DNA of 64,000 nucleotides from an uncultured Azospirillaceae bacterium (GTDB lineage Bacteria > Pseudomonadota > Alphaproteobacteria > Rickettsiales > UBA3002), in assembly GCA_964352815.1 (NCBI GenBank), contig CAYGTO010000005.1, positions 7,904 to 71,903 of the forward strand, given 5' to 3'. Shown here one piece after another: positions 15,129-58,659 of this stretch. The notes under the pieces were generated by a model that was given only the letters and a program-made list of their open reading frames with translations, was not told the DNA's origin and made no database searches. Made by a program: the position numbers and the translations under genes. The stretch's first letter is position 1; every line of letters starts with the position of its first letter.

Positions 15129-15515
15129 ATGAAACTATACGATTTACAAGACCCAGAGAAACTCAGACAGATTATGGATAAGGCTGGTCTAAATCCCACA
15201 GACTTTGATGTGACAGATCATGCAGGCGAAAGAGATAGTATTATTAGCAGATTAAAAGGCCTTGGTTACGATAATCCAGAATATGAAATTGGTGCAACCT
15301 ATTATGTGTCTCGTGATAGAAAAAGAAGCCAAGACGAAAGCGGTGAAACCCGAATTGAACCCCGAATTGAACAAGAAGGTGGCATCGTGGCAGCTGTCAA
15401 AGAAGCGTTCCCAGAAATAACAATTTCAACACTTCAAGCAGAGAATATTGCGTATGTGTTAGCGGGCAGAGTGGATCAGCACGCTGAATTACGCGCTGGC
15501 ATGGAAAGAGGATAA
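15129..15515 (+). CDS. hypothetical protein (128 aa) inserted between pdhA and pdhB
   Basis: Strong SD (GGGGGGTGAG) 2 nt upstream. I recognise no family. Its 3' end contains the SD of pdhB. Confidence 0.5.
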
Positions 15516-15516
15516 A

Positions 15517-16515
15517 ATGGCAACACAAACAATACGGGTCGCGCTGAGAGACGCCATGGCGGAGGAGCTTCGCCGCGATGAAGAAGTGTTCGTGATGGGC
15601 GAGGAAGTCGCCGAATATCAGGGCGCGTATAAGGTAACGGAAGGCTTGCTTGAGGAATTTGGCGACAAGCGCATTATTGATACACCGATCACCGAGCATG
15701 GCTTTGCGGGGATTGGTGTCGGCGCAGCGATGGCGGGGCTGAAGCCCGTTGTCGAATTCATGACGTGGAATTTTGCGATGCAAGCGATTGACCAGATCAT
15801 TAACTCTGCCGGCAAGACGCTTTACATGTCCGGCGGGCAGATCAAATGTCCGATCGTGTTTCGTGGGCCGAACGGCGCGGCCGCGCGCGTAGGTGCACAG
15901 CATTCCCAGGAATATTCCAGCTGGTACGCGCATATTCCGGGCCTTACCGTCATCGCGCCTTACAGCGCCGGCGATTGCAAAGGCCTGCTCAAATCCGCGA
16001 TTCGCAGTCCCAATCCGGTGATCTTCCTTGAGAATGAAGTGACCTATGGCTGGGAATTTGACGATGTGATGGAAGGCGAAGATGATCTGATTCCGATCGG
16101 CAAAGCGGCTGTGAAGCGCGAAGGCACGGACGTGACCATCACCGCCTTTTCGATCAATGTGAAATATGCGCTCGATGCGGCAGAGAAACTTGCCAAAGAG
16201 GGCATTAGCGCGGAGGTGATTGACCTGCGCACGATTCGTCCGCTCGATACGCAAACCATCATTGATTCGGTGCGCAAAACCCATCGTTTGATTTCCGTTG
16301 AAGAGGGCTGGCCCTTTGCTGGAATTGGCTCCGAGCTCGCAGCCATTTGTATGGAAGATTTGTTTGACGAGCTGGATGCACCGATGATTCGTGTGACGGG
16401 CAAAGACGTGCCGATGCCGTATGCGGCGAACCTTGAAAAACTCGCACTGCCCGGTGTAGATGACATTGTCAATGCGGCGCAGGAAGTCTGTTTTCCAATG
16501 GGGGCGGTGGCGTGA
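15517..16515 (+). CDS. pdhB: pyruvate dehydrogenase E1 component, beta subunit (no lipoyl domain)
   Basis: 332 aa with [25 protein letters not shown] and a transketolase-like pyrimidine-binding region. Confidence 0.95.
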
Positions 16516-16530
16516 GAAAAATGAAGCAAC

Positions 16531-16621
16531 GTCATTTCGAGCGAGCGCATCAGCGCGACGAGAAATCTGTCGGCGTCATGTTGAGATTTCTCCGTCTGCT
16601 AAAGCAGCCGTTCGAAATGAC
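16531..16621. repeat. GTCAT...ATGAC nested-hairpin element (91 nt)
   Basis: gtcatttcgag...gagaaatc-tgtcggcgtcatgtt-gatttctc...cgaaatgac has a perfect 8-bp inner stem. It overlaps the 5' end of the following ORF. Confidence 0.8.
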
Positions 16622-17330
16622 GTATATTATTTTCGCGGGAATGACACTTTTAGTGTTCACTTCCATTGCCCATGCCGACGATGATCTCGTACGCAGTGTG
16701 AGCGTGGTGGGCGAAGCAAAAGAATCACTCACCCCAGACCGCGCAACCATTAGCAGCACGGTACAGGCAAAGAACCAAAACTTAGACGCCGCAAAGAAAG
16801 AGCATGATGCGAAGCTTCGCAGCCTTTTGGCTCTGGCGAAGAAATATGATGTTGATGACAAAGACCAGCGCACGGTATCAAGCCGGATTCATCCGGAATG
16901 GCGTTGGGAAAAAAACACGCAAGTCTTTAAGGGATACACCGTGTCGACCACGGTGAGTTTTACGCTGGAAGACATCAAAGATGTGGGCGCGTTTTTAGAA
17001 GATGTGGTCCGCACCAAGCCCCATCAGATGAACGGCCCGAATTATCACATGGATGACACGAAACCGATCCGCGATAAGGTGCGTGTGTCGGCGATGAAAG
17101 ATGCGTATGCGAAAGCGGAAGCGCTTGCGAAGCAGGCTGATTTGAAGGTGGGGAAGGCCATCAGTATTTCAGACCGCTACCAGTCACCGCGGCCAGCTAT
17201 TGTAAACCGCGGTATGATTCGCGCTGATTCGGTTTCGTTTTCGGCGATGGAATCCGCGCCTGTTACTCCCCCTGCCGGAGAGCAAGCGATTCACGCGCAT
17301 GTCTATGTCACTTATGAGTTAGAAGAATAG
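16578..17330 (+). CDS. SIMPL-domain (DUF541) periplasmic protein
   Basis: A signal peptide ending ...LLVFTSIAHA, then a SIMPL-like body (DRATISSTVQAKNQNLDAAKKEH...). The start is ambiguous: 16578 (MLRFLRLLK, inside the repeat), 16617 (the ATGAC terminus of the repeat) or 16641. The ORF track begins at 16512. Confidence 0.7.
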   Translation: MLRFLRLLKQPFEMTYIIFAGMTLLVFTSIAHADDDLVRSVSVVGEAKESLTPDRATISSTVQAKNQNLDAAKKEHDAKLRSLLALAKKYDVDDKDQRTVSSRIHPEWRWEKNTQVFKGYTVSTTVSFTLEDIKDVGAFLEDVVRTKPHQMNGPNYHMDDTKPIRDKVRVSAMKDAYAKAEALAKQADLKVGKAISISDRYQSPRPAIVNRGMIRADSVSFSAMESAPVTPPAGEQAIHAHVYVTYELEE

Positions 17331-17342
17331 TAAGGGAACGCT

Positions 17343-18674
17343 ATGACCACAGAAATTTTAATGCCGGCGCTGTCGCCAACCATGACCGAGGGTACGCTTG
17401 CCAAATGGCTCAAGAAAGAAGGCGATACGGTCGAGTCGGGGGATATTCTCGCAGAGATCGAGACCGATAAGGCGACGATGGAAGTCGAAGCGGTCGATGA
17501 AGGCGTACTTGGCAAAATTTTTGTGGGTGACGGCACGGATAATGTGAAGGTCAATCAAGTGATCGCGGTGCTGCTGGATGAGGGTGAAGATAAGAGTGTA
17601 CTCAAAGATTATACGCCGCCGAAGCTGGAGGAGGAATCAGCAGAGGAAGAGGACGCCTCTGGTGACGATTCGGGCGGTGAGAAAAAAGAAACGAAAAAGC
17701 CGAGCGGTTCAGGCGGCGCGGCGATGATTCAGCAGCAAGCAACGACCGCGCCCGATGGCCCGGTCATGCCGGCAAAAGGGAAAGCTGCACAAACCGGTGA
17801 TCGCGTGAAGGCCTCGCCGCTGGCCAAGCGCATTGCTGAACAGAATATGCTCGATTTGAGTCGTGTGATGGGCAGCGGCCCGAACGGACGTATCATTAAA
17901 TCTGATATTGAAGAGGCGCTGCTGTCGGGCAATGCCGGGGCGAGCAAGGTGACGCGCCACCCGGTTGATTTCTATAAATTGCCGAACAATAATATGCGCA
18001 AAACCATCGCCAAGCGCCTGCTTGAGGCGAAGCAGACCATGCCGCATTTCTATCTGACGGTGGAGTGCGAGCTGGATGCGATGCTCGAAGTGCGTAAGCA
18101 AATTAATGGTCTGGCCGCCTCGCAAGCGGACGCGGATGGTAAGCCGCCTTACAAAATTTCGGTCAATGATATGGTCATCAAAGCCTCAGCTTGCGCGCTG
18201 CGTGACAAGCCAGCGGCGAATGCTAGCTGGTATGATGATGCGGTGGTGCAGTATAATAATGTCGATATTTCGGTGGCGGTGGCGACTGAGGGCGGCCTGA
18301 TCACGCCGATCATTCGCAATGCCGATCAAAAATCACTGCCGCAAATTTCTGCCGAGATGAAAGACCTCGCGGGCCGCGCGCGTAAAAATGCGCTGAAGCC
18401 TGAGGAATATCAGGGTGGCGGTTTCTCGATTTCAAACCTCGGCATGTTCGGCGTGCAAAGTTTCAGCGCCATTGTGAACCCGCCGCAAAGCTGCATCCTT
18501 GCGGTTGGCGCGGGAGAGGAAAAACTCGCGCTGGTCGATGGCCAGGTCACGGCGAAACAGGTGGTGAAAGTTACCCTGTCCGTTGATCACCGCTCCGTCG
18601 ATGGCGCCCTCGGCGCGGAATGGCTGCAAGCCTTTAAGAAATATATCGAACAGCCGGTGCTAATGTTTGTGTGA
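17343..18674 (+). CDS. pdhC: pyruvate dehydrogenase E2 (dihydrolipoamide acetyltransferase)
   Basis: Lipoyl domain with [10 protein letters not shown], an E3-binding domain and the catalytic DHRSVDG. Confidence 0.95.
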
Positions 18675-19195
18675 TGGAAGAGTGGGAACATACTTACTAT
18701 TATGAAATTTTGTTACTTTTAGTAACGTTAGTAGCTGGAGCTGTTGGTGCTCTTACGAACAAAGTGTTTGAGTGGAAAAACAGAGAAGAACTTAGAAAAA
18801 AGTTACACGAATATATTATCAGAGAAATAAAATTTAATATATCTAGAGTAGAGCACAATATTAATGAGCTTTACCAAATAAGAAACAAGTATGCCTTGTC
18901 AGAACGTATGATTGAAGCAACTACAGCAATAGGTAGAAGTGAAAGTAGCGTTATATTGAATTATTTGATTTCTCAAGGCATGGTCTATGAATTCTTAACA
19001 GACAAACAAATGGTGCTAATGCATAATTTTATCTTAAATTTTGCATCTACTACGGATTTATTTTTTAAAAGATTCACAGAACTGAAAGAAACAAATCCAA
19101 ATAAACAAGATGCTACAGCTTTCTTGGATCACTTTATTGATGAATATAATCATTATAAAAAAGATTTAGAAGATTTATTAAGAGAGCTAGCATGA
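18674..19195 (+). CDS. hypothetical membrane-anchored protein (AT-rich orphan)
   Basis: 173-174 aa with an N-terminal TM segment (YYYEILLLLVTLVAGAVGALT) and a helical remainder. ATG 18674 overlaps the pdhC TGA (TGATG); GTG 18671 is an alternative. Hand counts of two 60-nt lines give 13/60 and 21/60 G+C, against 29/60 in pdhC. Confidence 0.5.
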   Translation: MEEWEHTYYYEILLLLVTLVAGAVGALTNKVFEWKNREELRKKLHEYIIREIKFNISRVEHNINELYQIRNKYALSERMIEATTAIGRSESSVILNYLISQGMVYEFLTDKQMVLMHNFILNFASTTDLFFKRFTELKETNPNKQDATAFLDHFIDEYNHYKKDLEDLLRELA

Positions 19196-19503
19196 CAGAA
19201 AAACCCGTCATCACCTTCGAAGATATCCGCGCTAAACGCGAGGATATTTTGCGTATAGCGGAGGAACGCGGGCTTACGAATATCCGTGTGTTTGGCTCCA
19301 TCGCGCGCGGTGATGCCACCGAAGATAGCGACATTGATTTCTTGGTCAGCTACATGCCAGAAAGCGGTAAGGGCTGGGAAGTGTATGGGTTTCCGATAGA
19401 AATGGAAAAAATGTTTGGTGTGTCCAAAGTCGACATGGTGTTTGATAGTAACCTATATCCCATTTTCAAAGAACGCGTATTAAGCGAGGCGGTCGAGCTA
19501 TGA
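19192..19503 (+). CDS. mntA: nucleotidyltransferase-domain antitoxin (MntA-type, type VII TA)
   Basis: 103 aa. GSIARGDATEDSDIDFLV matches the GSxxRGx(n)SDxDxLV minimal nucleotidyltransferase motif. ATGA overlaps on both sides. Confidence 0.8.
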   Translation: MTEKPVITFEDIRAKREDILRIAEERGLTNIRVFGSIARGDATEDSDIDFLVSYMPESGKGWEVYGFPIEMEKMFGVSKVDMVFDSNLYPIFKERVLSEAVEL

Positions 19504-19868
19504 AGGAGAATGGCGATCAGGCTCACATTCATTATATTCTCTCCACCTCAGAGAAATTGTTGGGACTCGTGAAGGAAGAGAATGCCCGCAAGGCCTATCA
19601 AGACGATTGGATTCGCCAAGGCGCCACATTGCGCGGGCTTCATACCCTGTCTGAATCCGCTAGCAAGCTTTCGGGCGAAGCTAAGACCGCGATGCCAAAT
19701 ATCGAATGGGAAGAAATTCACGCTTTTAGAAATGCGTTGGTGCATGGATATTTGGGAAACATCAATCATGATGCCGTCTGGCTTGTGTTAGAGAACAAAC
19801 TACCAGACTTGAGAAACACATTATTAGCTTACTATGAGGAACATTATGGCGAATACAAACAAACATGA
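19500..19868 (+). CDS. hepT: HEPN/DUF86 toxin (HepT-type)
   Basis: 122 aa with the RNALVHGY (Rx4H) HEPN motif. Paired with the upstream MNT gene. Confidence 0.8.
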   Translation: MKENGDQAHIHYILSTSEKLLGLVKEENARKAYQDDWIRQGATLRGLHTLSESASKLSGEAKTAMPNIEWEEIHAFRNALVHGYLGNINHDAVWLVLENKLPDLRNTLLAYYEEHYGEYKQT

Positions 19869-21273
19869 TATCGTAATTTTAGGCGGTGGCCCGGGCGGGT
19901 ATGTCGCGGCGATTCGCGCGGCGCAGCTGGGCATGAATGCGGCGGTGGTCGAGCGCGAACATATGGGCGGGATTTGCCTGAATTGGGGCTGTATTCCGAC
20001 CAAGGCGCTGCTGCGCTCATCGGAGGTGATGCATCTGATGCAGGAGTCGGAAAGTTTCGGCCTGAGCAATGATAATATTTCGTATGATTTGAAAAAAGTG
20101 GTGAAGCGTTCGCGCGATGTGTCGGGGCAGCTCACCGGCGGAATCAGTGCGCTGATGAAGAAGAACAGAGTGACCGTCTATGAAGGCCATGGCGCGCTCG
20201 CGGGCGCGGGTAAAGTGACCGTGACCGAATTTGACAAAGAAGCGCGCGAAAAGGGCGAGAAGAAAGTCACCGAGATTGAAGCGGAACATATTATTCTCGC
20301 GACCGGTGCACGGGCGCGTCAGCTTCCGGGCCTTGAGTCCGATGGCACGCTGATCTGGACGTACCGCGAGGCGATGGTGCCAACCAAAATGCCGAAGAAA
20401 TTACTCGTCGTTGGTTCGGGCGCGATCGGTTCGGAATTTGCGAGTTTTTACCTGAATATGGGCGTCGATGTGACGCTGGTGGAAGTGCTTGATCGTGTGC
20501 TGCCCGTCGAAGATGAAGACATCTCGAAATTTATGAAGAAGCAGTTCGAGGCGCAGGGCATGAAGGTCAAAACCGCGACGACCGTGACCAAGCTCGAGAA
20601 GGGCAAAAGCAATGTCAAAGCGACGATGAAGGATAAAAAGGATAAGGAAACCACCGAGACGTTCGATAATGTGATTATGGCGGTGGGGATTGTCGGCAAT
20701 ATTGAAGGGATCGGCATTGAGGGTACGCGCGTGAAAACCGAGCGCGGCCATATTGTGGTGGATGAATATTACCGCACCGGTGAGAAGGGCGTCTATGCGA
20801 TCGGTGACATTACCGGCGCGCCGTGGCTCGCGCATAAAGCCTCGCATGAGGGGGTGATTTGTATCGAAGCGATTGCCGGCAAAAAGCCGCACGCGATGGT
20901 GAAGGAAAATATTCCGGGCTGCACCTATTGCCGCCCGCAAGTGGCGAGCGTTGGGCTGACTGAGGCGAAGGCGAAAGAGGCAGGGCATGAGGTCAAAGTC
21001 GGCAATTTCCCATTCATCGGTAATGGCAAAGCGATTGCACTGGGCGAGCCGGAAGGCATCGTGAAAACCGTGTTTGATGCGCAGACGGGTGAGCTACTCG
21101 GCGCGCATATGGCCGGCGCGGAAGTGACCGAAATGATTCAGGGCTACGTCATCGCGAAGCAGCTGGAGGCGACTGAAAAAGACCTGATGCACACCATCTT
21201 CCCGCATCCGACGCTGTCGGAAATGATGCATGAGTCGGTGCTGGATGCGTATGGGCAGGTGATTCATATGTGA
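19846..21273 (+). CDS. lpdA: dihydrolipoyl dehydrogenase (E3)
   Basis: GGGPGGY FAD motif and redox-active CLNWGCIPTK. Start MANTNKHD (ATG 19846, GAGGAA SD) overlaps the hepT 3' end by 23 nt. Confidence 0.95.
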   Translation: MANTNKHDIVILGGGPGGYVAAIRAAQLGMNAAVVEREHMGGICLNWGCIPTKALLRSSEVMHLMQESESFGLSNDNISYDLKKVVKRSRDVSGQLTGGISALMKKNRVTVYEGHGALAGAGKVTVTEFDKEAREKGEKKVTEIEAEHIILATGARARQLPGLESDGTLIWTYREAMVPTKMPKKLLVVGSGAIGSEFASFYLNMGVDVTLVEVLDRVLPVEDEDISKFMKKQFEAQGMKVKTATTVTKLEKGKSNVKATMKDKKDKETTETFDNVIMAVGIVGNIEGIGIEGTRVKTERGHIVVDEYYRTGEKGVYAIGDITGAPWLAHKASHEGVICIEAIAGKKPHAMVKENIPGCTYCRPQVASVGLTEAKAKEAGHEVKVGNFPFIGNGKAIALGEPEGIVKTVFDAQTGELLGAHMAGAEVTEMIQGYVIAKQLEATEKDLMHTIFPHPTLSEMMHESVLDAYGQVIHM

Positions 21274-21602: not shown

Positions 21603-22367
21603 ATGACAGATTTTAACAAACCCAAATTTATTATGATGGTAGGCGTTCCCATGTCCGGCAAGGACAGCTGGATCGGCCAGAACTTTGATTTTCAGGGGAC
21701 TAGCTCAGCGGATCTAGGCCTATATAAACGTAAGTCGGACGGTGCGACCTTTAACGTGATTTCCACCGATAATGAAGTATATACTGTTGGGTGTAAACAC
21801 TGTGTTACTTCCGATTTACAAGGCAGAGATGAGTATGTTCGTTACCAAGACGTTATGACGTACGATGATTGGCATCCCAAAGACAAGCCGGTGAGTGATT
21901 TATATCGAGAGGCAATTGATGAGGTGGACAAGAAGTTAGATGAGGCAATTGCTGCGGGCAAAAATATTTTGTTCAATCGCACGAATACAACTCAGCAAGA
22001 GCGCGCAGCTGTTATTGAAAAGCTAGGCGATAAATATGATGTCGAAGCGGTAGTTATGGTGCCATCTTCAGAAGAGATTGCATCACGCTATGAACGCTCG
22101 AACCCTAAAGAAATCCCGGGTTTTGTGATGGCTTCCAAAATGAAAAAGTTTGAAATGCCAACCAAGGAAGAAGGCTTTAGTCATATCCATATTAACCCGC
22201 CAACACGTCCAACAATTTTCCCGGGAATGGCAGGTGAGCGTTATGCACCGAGTGAGTTTATTAAAAAGAATCAAGCGGTGATAGATTCTTCAGTATTTAG
22301 GGGTGTCGAGGCAGTTCAAAAATATGATGAACTCGCTGCAGCACAGGTACGAGGCCAATCCCGCTAA
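21603..22367 (+). CDS. P-loop kinase-like protein (AAA_33 / polynucleotide-kinase-like)
   Basis: FIMMVGVPMSGKDSW is Walker A-like (GxxxxGKD, with D in place of S/T). ILFNRTNTTQQER resembles the kinase lid region of AAA_33 proteins. Confidence 0.55.
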   Translation: MTDFNKPKFIMMVGVPMSGKDSWIGQNFDFQGTSSADLGLYKRKSDGATFNVISTDNEVYTVGCKHCVTSDLQGRDEYVRYQDVMTYDDWHPKDKPVSDLYREAIDEVDKKLDEAIAAGKNILFNRTNTTQQERAAVIEKLGDKYDVEAVVMVPSSEEIASRYERSNPKEIPGFVMASKMKKFEMPTKEEGFSHIHINPPTRPTIFPGMAGERYAPSEFIKKNQAVIDSSVFRGVEAVQKYDELAAAQVRGQSR

Positions 22368-22410: not shown

Positions 22411-23196
22411 ATGTTGGGGGCGCAGTTTTTTCGAAGCATCTACTCCGCGCAGGAGTTGCAAACCTCTTTTGAAGAAATTCACACCCTGCCGCATAGTCCA
22501 CAAGATCGTATTGAAACCGGCTGTCTTCATCAATATCTCGCCGTGCTAAACTATCATGACCGGGTCCATTTCCCGCTCGATATTATGAAACATTTTCAAG
22601 GGCAGGGGCCAGACTTTACGATTCGTAATGGCGCCTATTTCGGCGTGGAGATGACCAAAGTCACCACGCAGGATTATCAGGTCTGGCTGAAAAGCGGGCT
22701 AAATTATTGGCCAATCCAGAATATGGATGAATATGTCGATACGCGCGCGGAGCATCGCGTCGCCGATCTGACGATGTACCGCATCAAGAAAAAGAATTAT
22801 AAACTCCCGCTCTATAAAGCCGCAGTGCCAGATATGGAATATTGCGATCTGGTGTTGGAGGAAGATGGCAATGTCTGCATGAACAAAGGGGTGCTGATGG
22901 ATCTGCTTCAACGCAAAGTCCATACGCTAAAATTCCAGAACTTCCGAACGCTCTCCCTGATCTCTGGCTCTACGTTATTTTATGCGTTCAATACCGATGA
23001 TGCGGCAATTCTAAACGCGCCAGATATGATTAGCGCGATTCAAAACCGTACGAGTGATGTCACGAAACAGGCACTGTTCGAGAAAGGATGGGAGGAAACT
23101 AACGCGCTTGTGGTCCCGCCGAAAAGAACTGCTTTACCATGCCCACCGGGTCGCTCAACTTCGACTGAAGCTTCCCAATTTGCATCACGTCATTAA
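22411..23196 (+). CDS. hypothetical protein (261 aa)
   Basis: An ORF with ordinary codon usage and no family I recognise. Its 3' end overlaps the convergent COQ9-like gene by 98 nt. Confidence 0.45.
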   Translation: MLGAQFFRSIYSAQELQTSFEEIHTLPHSPQDRIETGCLHQYLAVLNYHDRVHFPLDIMKHFQGQGPDFTIRNGAYFGVEMTKVTTQDYQVWLKSGLNYWPIQNMDEYVDTRAEHRVADLTMYRIKKKNYKLPLYKAAVPDMEYCDLVLEEDGNVCMNKGVLMDLLQRKVHTLKFQNFRTLSLISGSTLFYAFNTDDAAILNAPDMISAIQNRTSDVTKQALFEKGWEETNALVVPPKRTALPCPPGRSTSTEASQFASRH

Positions 23197-37277: not shown

Positions 37278-38388
37278 ATGAAAGCCGAAATCAAAACCTT
37301 GTCGGATGATATTCAGCAAAGCCTCGCCTTGCTGAGGAGGTATCTTTGACTGGGAGGTGAGCCTCACAAAGCTCGACGAACTAAACGCCAAGGCGGAAGA
37401 CCCTGATCTTTGGAATGATCAGGCGAAAGCGCAATCGATATTGAAAGAACGCACGGCGCTTGAAACGATGATCAACGGCGTGCGCAGCCTCGAATCGGAA
37501 CATGAGGACGCCATTGCGCTTGCGGAATTGGGTGAAGAAGAGGGAGATCAAGACTCGGTTAATGAGGCTGAGGCGATACTCCAGAAGACACTTGAAACGT
37601 CCAAGCGCCTCGAAATTGAATCACTCCTAGCCGGGGAAGCGGATGCGAATAACTGTTTTGTGGAATTTCATCCCGGTGCGGGCGGAACGGAGAGCCATGA
37701 TTGGTGCAGTATGCTTTACCGGATGGTGCTGCGCTGGGCTGAGCGTCGTGGGTTTAAAACAGAAATTGTCGAAGAACAGTCGGGCGAAGAGGCGGGTATT
37801 AAATCGGCCACCATCAAGATTGTTGGCCATAATGCCTATGGCTGGACGAAGACCGAATCGGGAACGCACCGCTTAGTGCGCATCTCGCCGTTCGATTCTG
37901 CGTCGCGCCGCCATACCAGCTTTGCAAGTATCTGGGTATATCCCGAGGTAGATGATAATATCGATATCGATATCGATGAATCTCAGGTGCGGGTGGACAC
38001 CTATCGGGCGTCGGGCGCGGGTGGTCAGCATGTGAACAAAACCGATTCTGCGGTGCGATTGACCCATGAGCCAACCGGCATTGTCGTGCAATGTCAGAAT
38101 TCACGCTCGCAGCATGCGAACCGGGCCGAAGCGTGGAAGATGCTGCGCGCGCGGCTCTACGAGAGAGAGCTTCAGCTACGCGAAGATGCGGCGGCGGCGG
38201 AGCAGGCGAGCAAAGGCGATAATGCTTGGGGCCATCAGATTCGCTCCTATGTGCTGCACCCGTATCAGATGGTGAAGGATTTGCGCACGGGGGTTGAGAC
38301 GGGGAACACACAAGCCACGCTCGATGGTGATTTGGACCCGTTTATCTTTGCCGCGCTCGCCGATCGGGTTGGTGGGAAGGAGGGTTAG
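37278..38388 (+). CDS. prfB: peptide chain release factor 2, made by programmed +1 frameshift: join(37278..37346,37348..38388)
   Basis: Frame 0 reads ATG 37278 ... AGG AGG TAT CTT TGA (stop at 37347-37349). The +1 frame continues GAC TGG GAG GTG AGC... into the 343-aa ORF, which carries SPF (RISPFDS) and GGQ (SGAGGQHVNKTDSAVR). Confidence 0.95.
37335..37350 (+). promoter_or_regulatory. prfB autoregulatory +1 frameshift site
   Basis: AGGAGG-tat-CTT-TGA-C: an internal SD-like element 3 nt before the slippery CTT and an in-frame UGA followed by C. This is the canonical arrangement. Confidence 0.9.
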
Positions 38389-38783
38389 GGTGTCGGCCCT
38401 TGCCGTGCGATGATCGCTTCCGCGTCTTTTTGGATTCGATCTATACCAGAGCGGTCATAATCATCTGTTTCTTTAGGGATTTTGACGCAAAAATTGAAAT
38501 GGCCCATTTGAGCAATGCCTAAAGGGTTTTTATCAATTAATTTTCGATTGATTCCATAATGCGTGCATAGCTCTTCTTTTAACCCGGTTACTTCATGTGA
38601 TAGTGGTCTGTACGTTCGTGAACTTTTAGGAACGAAGCCTATGTAAAGTGTAATATATCCAGCATTGTTATGTTGTTTGATTGTTTGTGATTGCAGAGCC
38701 GTGAAGTCATGTTGTGCCATGAAATCAATCAGTAAATTTTTCAATCTACCTTTTGATTCTGGCGCATGTACTTTGATTGCCAT
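38385..38783 (-). CDS. hypothetical protein (132 aa, AT-rich orphan)
   Basis: An ORF between prfB and mnmA whose 3' end overlaps the prfB stop by 4 nt. No recognisable motif. Confidence 0.4.
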   Translation of the reverse strand: MAIKVHAPESKGRLKNLLIDFMAQHDFTALQSQTIKQHNNAGYITLYIGFVPKSSRTYRPLSHEVTGLKEELCTHYGINRKLIDKNPLGIAQMGHFNFCVKIPKETDDYDRSGIDRIQKDAEAIIARQGPTP

Positions 38784-58556: not shown

Positions 58557-58659
58557 GTCATCCCCGCGACCCGAAGGGCGGCGCAAGCCAACGCGGGGAT
58601 CCAATTAAACAAACTGCGTTCTCTGGGATTCATTAGATTCCCGCTTTCGCGGGAATGAC
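58557..58659 (-). repeat. GTCAT...ATGAC nested-hairpin element (103 nt)
   Basis: gtcatccccgcg...cgcggggatcc ... gattcccgc-tttc-gcgggaatgac. It starts 2 nt after the hydrolase stop. Confidence 0.8.

Follow-up and report, generated by a model that had tools for sequence, protein, structure and literature searches.

Three small genes stand between the genes for the E2 and E3 components of pyruvate dehydrogenase (PDH) in an uncultured alphaproteobacterium, and their overlapping starts and stops raise the question of whether they form one system or are unrelated neighbours in a shared interval. The stretch of DNA analysed here—64,000 nucleotides (nt) of contig CAYGTO010000005.1 (assembly GCA_964352815.1), hereafter the window, from whose first letter positions are counted unless another contig is named—carries in this pdhC-lpdA interval an AT-rich gene encoding a membrane-anchored protein of 173 amino acids (aa), followed by mntA and hepT, which resemble a type VII toxin-antitoxin (TA) pair. 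A preliminary description of the window had read the three genes as a single cassette, possibly a three-component defence or abortive-infection module or else an addiction module that exploits PDH expression.

We consider it likely that the interval is not one cassette and holds two evolutionarily independent units, a clade-specific membrane-protein gene and a TA pair that was inserted later. The genomic contexts of homologues of the membrane protein and the base compositions of the three genes carry this reading.

Results

Homologues of the 173-aa protein were sought in some 15 billion proteins overall, through a word-indexed search of 5.8 billion clusters, an exhaustive phmmer search of 1.84 billion representatives, a profile search and a metagenome scan. 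In the word-indexed search the protein matched itself alone; phmmer found three relatives (P0004–P0006, E-values 7e-11 to 9e-7), P0007 came from the profile search, and L086, the full-length version of P0005, from the metagenome scan. The family consists of the 173-aa protein and five relatives, all of 167–169 aa, to which the window protein is 25–31% identical.

Wherever a homologue's neighbours are recognisable, its gene occupies the pdhC-lpdA interval of a related uncultured alphaproteobacterium, in every case on the PDH strand and in tight packing. The gene order in L083 is pdhA, bAvd-like, pdhB, SIMPL, pdhC, GNAT, Zn-ribbon/transmembrane (TM), the homologue itself (TM169) and lpdA; in L085 it is pdhC, TM169, SnoaL-like and lpdA; in L084 and L086, pdhC, Zn-ribbon/TM, TM169 and the contig end; and on the P0004 contig, GIY-YIG, TM167 and a 409-aa gene cut by the contig end. 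Across related genomes, the membrane-protein gene stands beside GNAT, Zn-ribbon/TM, SnoaL and GIY-YIG genes, not beside genes for a minimal nucleotidyltransferase (MNT) and HepT. In none of the three contexts with a visible downstream side (L083, L085 and the P0004 contig) is it followed by an MNT/HepT pair. The preliminary description had itself proposed that a single cassette should be given up if homologues of the membrane protein did not co-occur with MNT/HEPN genes, and these three contexts show no such co-occurrence.

Base composition separates the same two units. The G+C content of the 173-aa gene is 0.299 overall (GC) and 0.247 at third codon positions (GC3), compared with a GC of 0.55 and a GC3 of 0.63–0.68 for pdhC and lpdA; the gene is the lowest-GC stretch of the window (300-nt minimum 0.29, mean 0.497, standard deviation 0.05) and the switch in GC is sharp, coinciding with the borders of the gene. 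GC3 is 0.55 in mntA and 0.50 in hepT, and this difference from the 0.25 of the membrane-protein gene argues that the orphan and the TA pair did not arrive together.

The membrane-protein gene appears to have descended with its hosts. The closest relative with full genes, L083, is 71% identical to the window in E1 alpha, 81% in E1 beta, 63–69% in E2, 69% in E3, 52% in the 261-aa protein encoded further downstream (orf261), 32% in SIMPL and 28% in the membrane protein. The closest GTDB representative, L003, shares 85% identity with L083 in E1 beta and 79% in E3, more than the window does. For the C-terminus of E2, identity is 83% between L083 and L086 and 74% between the window and L086; the window is the outgroup to L083 and L003. 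Membrane-protein identities fall in the same order (57% between L083 and L086, 25–31% between the window and all others), and this parallel with the host genes points to vertical descent. Between lineages, nonsynonymous divergence (dN) of the gene is 0.37–0.86 and synonymous divergence (dS) is saturated (1.8–3.1 or not computable), with a dN of 0.37 and a dS of about 3 between L083 and L086; since dS is saturated and dN much lower, the gene appears to be old and under purifying selection. Its GC3 in four lineages is 0.25, 0.27, 0.26 and 0.42, against 0.62–0.80 in the flanking genes.

In L083 a single base separates the membrane-protein gene from lpdA. In L003 the pdhC-lpdA interval is reduced to a 66-nt palindromic spacer without the membrane-protein gene, and the PDH operon is intact. 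The 173-aa family is also missing from all 60 other alphaproteobacterial loci compared (hidden Markov model, E > 0.05), and from these absences we conclude that the gene is dispensable for PDH.

Two further features of the relatives were recorded. Short REP-like palindromes of the TCCCGC-N4-GCGGGA type flank the membrane-protein gene (L083 9950–9990, L085 600–640); GTCATTCTGAGCGAAGCGAAGAATC-type palindromes fill the empty spacer of L003 (3850–3910), and the window has one copy of the TCCCGC-N4-GCGGGA type, far from the interval, at 58639–58654. Directly upstream of the membrane-protein gene, L083 (9623–9949) and L086 (410–766) encode a protein of 108 or 118 aa, respectively, in which two CxxC pairs bracket a hydrophobic segment and DPDAW is conserved at the C-terminus; the protein has no homologue in the window.

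Within the window, the gene coordinates and the four overlapping junctions given by the preliminary description agree with the open reading frame (ORF) listing and with direct reading (Table 1). The pdhC stop (TGA, 18672–18674) overlaps the ATG of the 173-aa gene at 18674 to give the junction TGATG (18672–18676), ATGA overlaps join the 173-aa gene to mntA (19192–19195) and mntA to hepT (4 nt, 19500–19503), and the lpdA ATG falls 23 nt within hepT, inside which the lpdA Shine-Dalgarno sequence GAGG is retained at 19837–19840. For the 173-aa gene, ATG 18674 was preferred over GTG 18671, an alternative start in the ORF listing, because the family alignment shows no variation at M1 or E3; for lpdA, ATG 19846 was preferred over an alternative ATG at 19834 because the N-termini of its homologues in L083 and L085 agree.

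The genes for E1 alpha, E1 beta, E2 and E3, recognised from ORFs and Pfam matches, follow one another on one strand as a pdhA-pdhB-pdhC-lpdA operon, in the same order as in L083 and L003, so that the three genes are indeed wedged between Pfam-confirmed PDH genes. The same arrangement recurs identically in three independent Logan assemblies (three sequencing runs), which argues against mis-assembly of the interval. We found no terminator-like sites on the plus strand within the three-gene interval and, around it, no meaningful direct or inverted repeats, no integrase and no scars; Rfam and tRNA scans of the whole window gave no matches.

Table 1. Features of the pdhC-lpdA interval and its flanking genes, in window positions.
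Feature	Position	Strand	Evidence
pdhC (E2 dihydrolipoamide acetyltransferase), upstream anchor	17343..18674	+	Pfam Biotin_lipoyl, E3_binding, 2-oxoacid_dh (9e-82)
AT-rich gene, 173-aa membrane-anchored helical protein	18674..19195	+	GC 0.30, GC3 0.25; uncharacterised six-sequence family
Predicted single TM helix of 173-aa protein, residues 10-28	18701..18757	+	Kyte-Doolittle 2.0
mntA, minimal nucleotidyltransferase antitoxin, 103 aa	19192..19503	+	PF01909 1.3e-10; PADLOC PDC-S09 1.4e-27; PDB 1WOT 2.4e-15
GSX10DXD catalytic motif of MntA (G35 S36 ... D47 I48 D49)	19294..19338	+	direct reading; definition PMC7641770
hepT, HEPN RNase toxin (putative), 122 aa	19500..19868	+	PF01934 1.2e-15; NCBIfam HepT_toxin 2e-09
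RX4HXY motif of HepT (R77 NALV H82 G83 Y84), Y84 = predicted AMPylation site	19728..19751	+	direct reading; definition PMC7641770
lpdA (E3 dihydrolipoamide dehydrogenase), downstream anchor	19846..21273	+	Pfam Pyr_redox_2 2e-66, Pyr_redox_dim 2e-37

The 173-aa family aligns end to end, almost without insertions or deletions, over 23 invariant columns. Its invariant polar residues (R50, E51, N55, R78, D110, Q112, N118, K144 and D152) suggest a specific binding surface, and small-residue motifs of the TM helix (T18, L19, G22) are conserved across the family. All five members have no lysine or arginine on the N-terminal side of this helix and seven or eight in the 25 residues that follow it; under the positive-inside rule, this distribution predicts that the single N-terminal helix is oriented N-out/C-in. 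An AlphaFold2 model built from a five-sequence alignment (mean predicted local distance difference test score 73.6) is a helical bundle in which the TM helix extends as a long helix to residue 75, with helices 110–140 and 144–172 packing into the bundle. A Foldseek search with this model, as the preliminary description had proposed, returned generic helical bundles only, at E > 0.1.

Searches of Pfam, NCBIfam, PHROGs and PADLOC with the protein and its family produced sub-threshold noise (DUF1128 at 0.024, BA5345 at 0.017, GpsB at 0.059), so that the gene is still, as first described, an AT-rich single-pass membrane orphan with no curated family match. No PADLOC-DB 2.0 defence model matched any of five family members at E <= 1, no homologue was found in phage, plasmid and viral-contig collections, and the protein has no sequence or structural likeness to known PDH-binding or regulatory domains. 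Identification as a HEPN protein was rejected, as no RX4-6H motif is conserved in the alignment. The gene's AT-rich DNA is rich in stop codons, and a 170-codon open frame appeared in none of 20,000 shuffles of it. In the literature library searched, no relevant description of a gene in the pdhC-lpdA interval was found.

The other two genes bear out the earlier identification of a type VII MntA/HepT pair. The 103-aa protein matches NTP_transf_2 (PF01909) over profile positions 4–84 of 93 (42 bits, gathering score 21) and the 122-aa protein matches the HepT-like family (PF01934) over positions 6–117 of 120 (57.7 bits, gathering score 23.5). Type VII pairs are defined by a GSX10DXD motif in MntA and an RX4HXY motif in HepT, the tyrosine of which is the AMP acceptor (PMC7641770). 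Both motifs are exact here, with IARGDATEDS between G35 S36 and D47 in the former. As in other such pairs, the antitoxin gene lies directly upstream of the toxin gene on the same strand and overlaps it, and the gene sizes are alike. The window pair differs in its divergence and in lying inside a core metabolic operon, without room for a promoter of its own and with hepT overlapping the start of lpdA.

The closest solved structure to the MNT protein, aligned over residues 9–102, is the putative minimal nucleotidyltransferase of Thermus thermophilus (1WOT), a structural-genomics entry; the record used names no function or partner. The nearest HepT relative found (P0003, 32% identity) is encoded in a simple two-gene pair with an MNT, at a locus rich in TA genes. 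From sequence, the 103-aa and 122-aa genes form a divergent, apparently intact class I type VII TA pair.

Other Alphaproteobacteria show how readily this junction accepts genes. The gap between pdhC and lpdA measures anywhere from -11 to 2687 bp in the 60 other loci, and its genes encode SLOG, DUF559 endonuclease-like, GDSL hydrolase, DUF465 and GNAT proteins as well as several low-GC orphans. Like the window genes, these accessory genes (GDSL in Rhizobiales, DUF559 in Methylobacterium, SLOG, DUF465, GNAT) occupy the same junction on the same strand, and many are lower in GC than their flanks (an orphan in L081 has 0.50 against 0.67), but none is homologous to the 173-aa protein and there was no TA pair among those examined. 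The pdhC-lpdA junction is a general permissive landing site for small accessory or selfish genes in Alphaproteobacteria.

Two of these loci, L064 (7423–7914) and L044 (7577–8101), have unrelated low-GC ORFs of 163–174 aa with predicted membrane helices directly after pdhC; their GC is 0.56 against 0.66 in pdhC for L064 and 0.46 against 0.71 for L044. They may be positional analogues of the 173-aa gene, without detectable homology. The closest candidate in architecture, the 163-aa ORF of L064, whose product combines an N-terminal TM helix with a helical domain, was considered as a distant homologue and rejected (hhalign probability 0.2%).

Other slots of the operon are also occupied. A 128-aa ORF with no family match (15129–15515, plus strand; GC 0.42, GC3 0.30) fills the pdhA-pdhB junction of the window, where L083 has an unrelated 128-aa bAvd/23S-rRNA intervening sequence (IVS) protein and L003 a gene for a 100-aa GIY-YIG nuclease; since the occupants differ among the three, this junction also gathers small, variable, partly selfish genes. 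Between pdhB and pdhC, and sharing 4 nt with the end of pdhB, lies a SIMPL/DUF541 gene (16512–17330, plus strand) whose oxidative-stress-defence-like product has a signal/TM N-terminus; the gene keeps its position in L083 and L003 at 32–34% identity.

Downstream of lpdA, the window encodes a 254-aa P-loop kinase-like protein (21603–22367, plus strand; AAA_33, weak Zeta_toxin, phrog_6931 at 5.5e-17, GC3 0.42), followed by the 261-aa protein without a Pfam match (22411–23196, plus strand). The kinase-like gene is absent from L083 and L003, where the orf261 homologue directly follows lpdA, and is probably another lineage-specific insertion; the 261-aa protein, kept downstream of lpdA in L083 (49–52% identity) and L003 (52%), is a clade-specific neighbour of the PDH locus. 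Elsewhere in the window, a 132-aa ORF without a Pfam match lies between prfB and mnmA (38385–38783, minus strand) in the second-deepest GC dip (about 0.36) and looks like another AT-rich orphan insertion.

Discussion

On the account that we favour, the membrane-protein gene would have stood at the junction in the common ancestor of the window organism and a few related uncultured Alphaproteobacteria. It would be fast-evolving under purifying selection, dispensable and kept strongly AT-rich, and would have been lost in the L003 lineage; its product would span the membrane once, by an N-terminal helix with the N-terminus outside, and place a helical bundle of about 140 residues in the cytoplasm. 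The TA pair would have been inserted later, in the window lineage only, into the few bases between this gene and lpdA. An ancestral gene, its loss in L003 and a later TA insertion would make the simplest history.

As to function, HepT would act as an RX4H RNase, and MntA, through its GSX10DXD site, would neutralise it by AMPylating the RX4HXY tyrosine, as the motifs suggest by comparison with other MntA/HepT pairs. None of the three genes has space for its own promoter or terminator, so transcription most likely reaches them by read-through from the PDH promoter, with translation by coupling. The TA pair may persist as an addiction or stress module, so that the earlier idea of an addiction module riding on PDH expression is reasonable for the pair, though not for the three genes together. 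As for the membrane protein, our best guess is an accessory protein, low in abundance and without a connection to the TA pair.

Several points weigh against this account. The L084 and L086 contigs end 9–46 nt past the membrane-protein gene, which leaves a small sample of three independent downstream contexts. A functional link acquired secondarily in the window lineage could underlie the close ATGA coupling between orphan and mntA, and the orphan may have been reacquired repeatedly from an unsampled AT-rich gene pool instead of descending vertically. As for the TA pair, a sequence search of PDB with HepT gave no match, so that its activity is read from motifs, and the NCBIfam equivalog models NF047752 and NF047751 scored 35.9 and 37.4 bits against cut-offs of 60. 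The pair is best described, from these scores, as a divergent member of its domain families and not as an equivalog of the characterised Shewanella MntA/HepT.

The AT-richness of the membrane-protein gene is odd on the favoured account, as long residence should have brought drift towards host composition. Either selection keeps the gene AT-rich or an unsampled AT-rich pool replaces it repeatedly; as no family member was found elsewhere, we favour selection. Possible reasons are low translation of a membrane protein within a strongly expressed operon, the binding of a MucR-type silencer, or an RNase E entry site. MucR silences AT-rich DNA in alphaproteobacteria (PMC9410896).

These considerations lend some weight to a reading that we nevertheless regard as unlikely, in which the AT-rich gene is a previously unrecognised, clade-restricted accessory of the PDH locus. 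It could act as a membrane-anchored bundle that tethers or regulates PDH at the inner membrane, or its DNA or RNA could serve as a regulatory spacer that uncouples lpdA from pdhABC expression (by silencer binding, RNase E entry or slow translation); either way, PDH or E3 expression or localisation would be modulated. Were this so, selection (on silencer binding, RNase E entry or codon de-optimisation within a highly expressed operon) would be keeping the gene AT-rich, and recent transfer would not be the explanation. The restriction of the family to the pdhC-lpdA interval, on the PDH strand and tightly packed, fits this reading, as do the predicted cytoplasmic helical domain with its invariant polar residues, the susceptibility of AT-rich DNA to MucR, and a GC3 that stays far below that of the host despite saturated dS, which points to selection on composition. 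The gene is missing from L003, which is nested with L083 and has an intact PDH operon, and from 60 of 60 other loci; this speaks against the reading, as does the lack of any likeness to known PDH-binding or regulatory domains; in the window, moreover, two further genes stand between the membrane-protein gene and lpdA.

There is a similarly small chance that the orphan is a foreign ORFan, from a phage or another AT-rich donor, which repeatedly reaches a permissive junction, has no host function and is AT-rich because each arrival is recent. The sharp GC switch exactly at the gene borders speaks for it, and so do other low-GC orphans at the junction (those of L044 and L081, for example) and selfish families in slots nearby (the bAvd/IVS protein in L083, GIY-YIG in L003 and on the P0004 contig). 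No homologue was found outside the junction in any search, however, nor are there integrases, repeats or scars; dN/dS is well below 1, and the orphan proteins, which diverge more than the host genes, do so in the same order, as co-divergence would predict.

For the second unit of our favoured account, we consider it very unlikely that the MNT/HepT pair is an inactive, decaying remnant. Its sub-cut-off NCBIfam scores and its few close relatives, the best HepT match being just 32% identical, would suit decay, but each ORF is full length when compared with its Pfam profile, the two catalytic motifs fit their definitions exactly, and the overlapping start and stop architecture is kept.

Least probable of all, in our estimate, is the three-component system of the preliminary description, in which a membrane effector or sensor joins MntA and HepT in a defence or abortive-infection module: overlapping junctions couple the genes tightly, the MNT protein matches a PADLOC candidate defence family (PDC-S09) and Hailong offers a precedent for pairing a nucleotidyltransferase with a membrane effector, but the three informative homologue contexts lack MNT/HepT, the GC3 values of orphan and pair do not indicate a shared origin, the orphan matches no PADLOC model and the closest HepT relative belongs to a two-gene pair. 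The Hailong anti-phage system consists of a membrane channel, HalA, and a nucleotidyltransferase, HalB. The window shares with it a nucleotidyltransferase gene next to a membrane-protein gene, and differs in that its MNT protein matches the HalB model (NF051895) over the 19 residues of the catalytic loop only, with 20.9 bits against a cut-off of 190, in that its membrane protein has no defence-model match, and in having a HEPN toxin instead.

Conclusions

Within the most abundant TA class this pair is a routine member, and its sole unusual trait is its placement inside a core metabolic operon without room for a promoter, which shows how deeply selfish modules can become embedded in essential transcription units. 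The more useful outcome is a negative one: tight translational coupling in this interval does not imply shared function. The puzzle that remains is a family of six sequences, confined to one operon junction, with a GC3 that is 0.3–0.5 below that of its hosts after synonymous saturation. If this composition is maintained by selection, the family would provide a compact natural example in which to ask why certain resident genes resist amelioration of their base composition.

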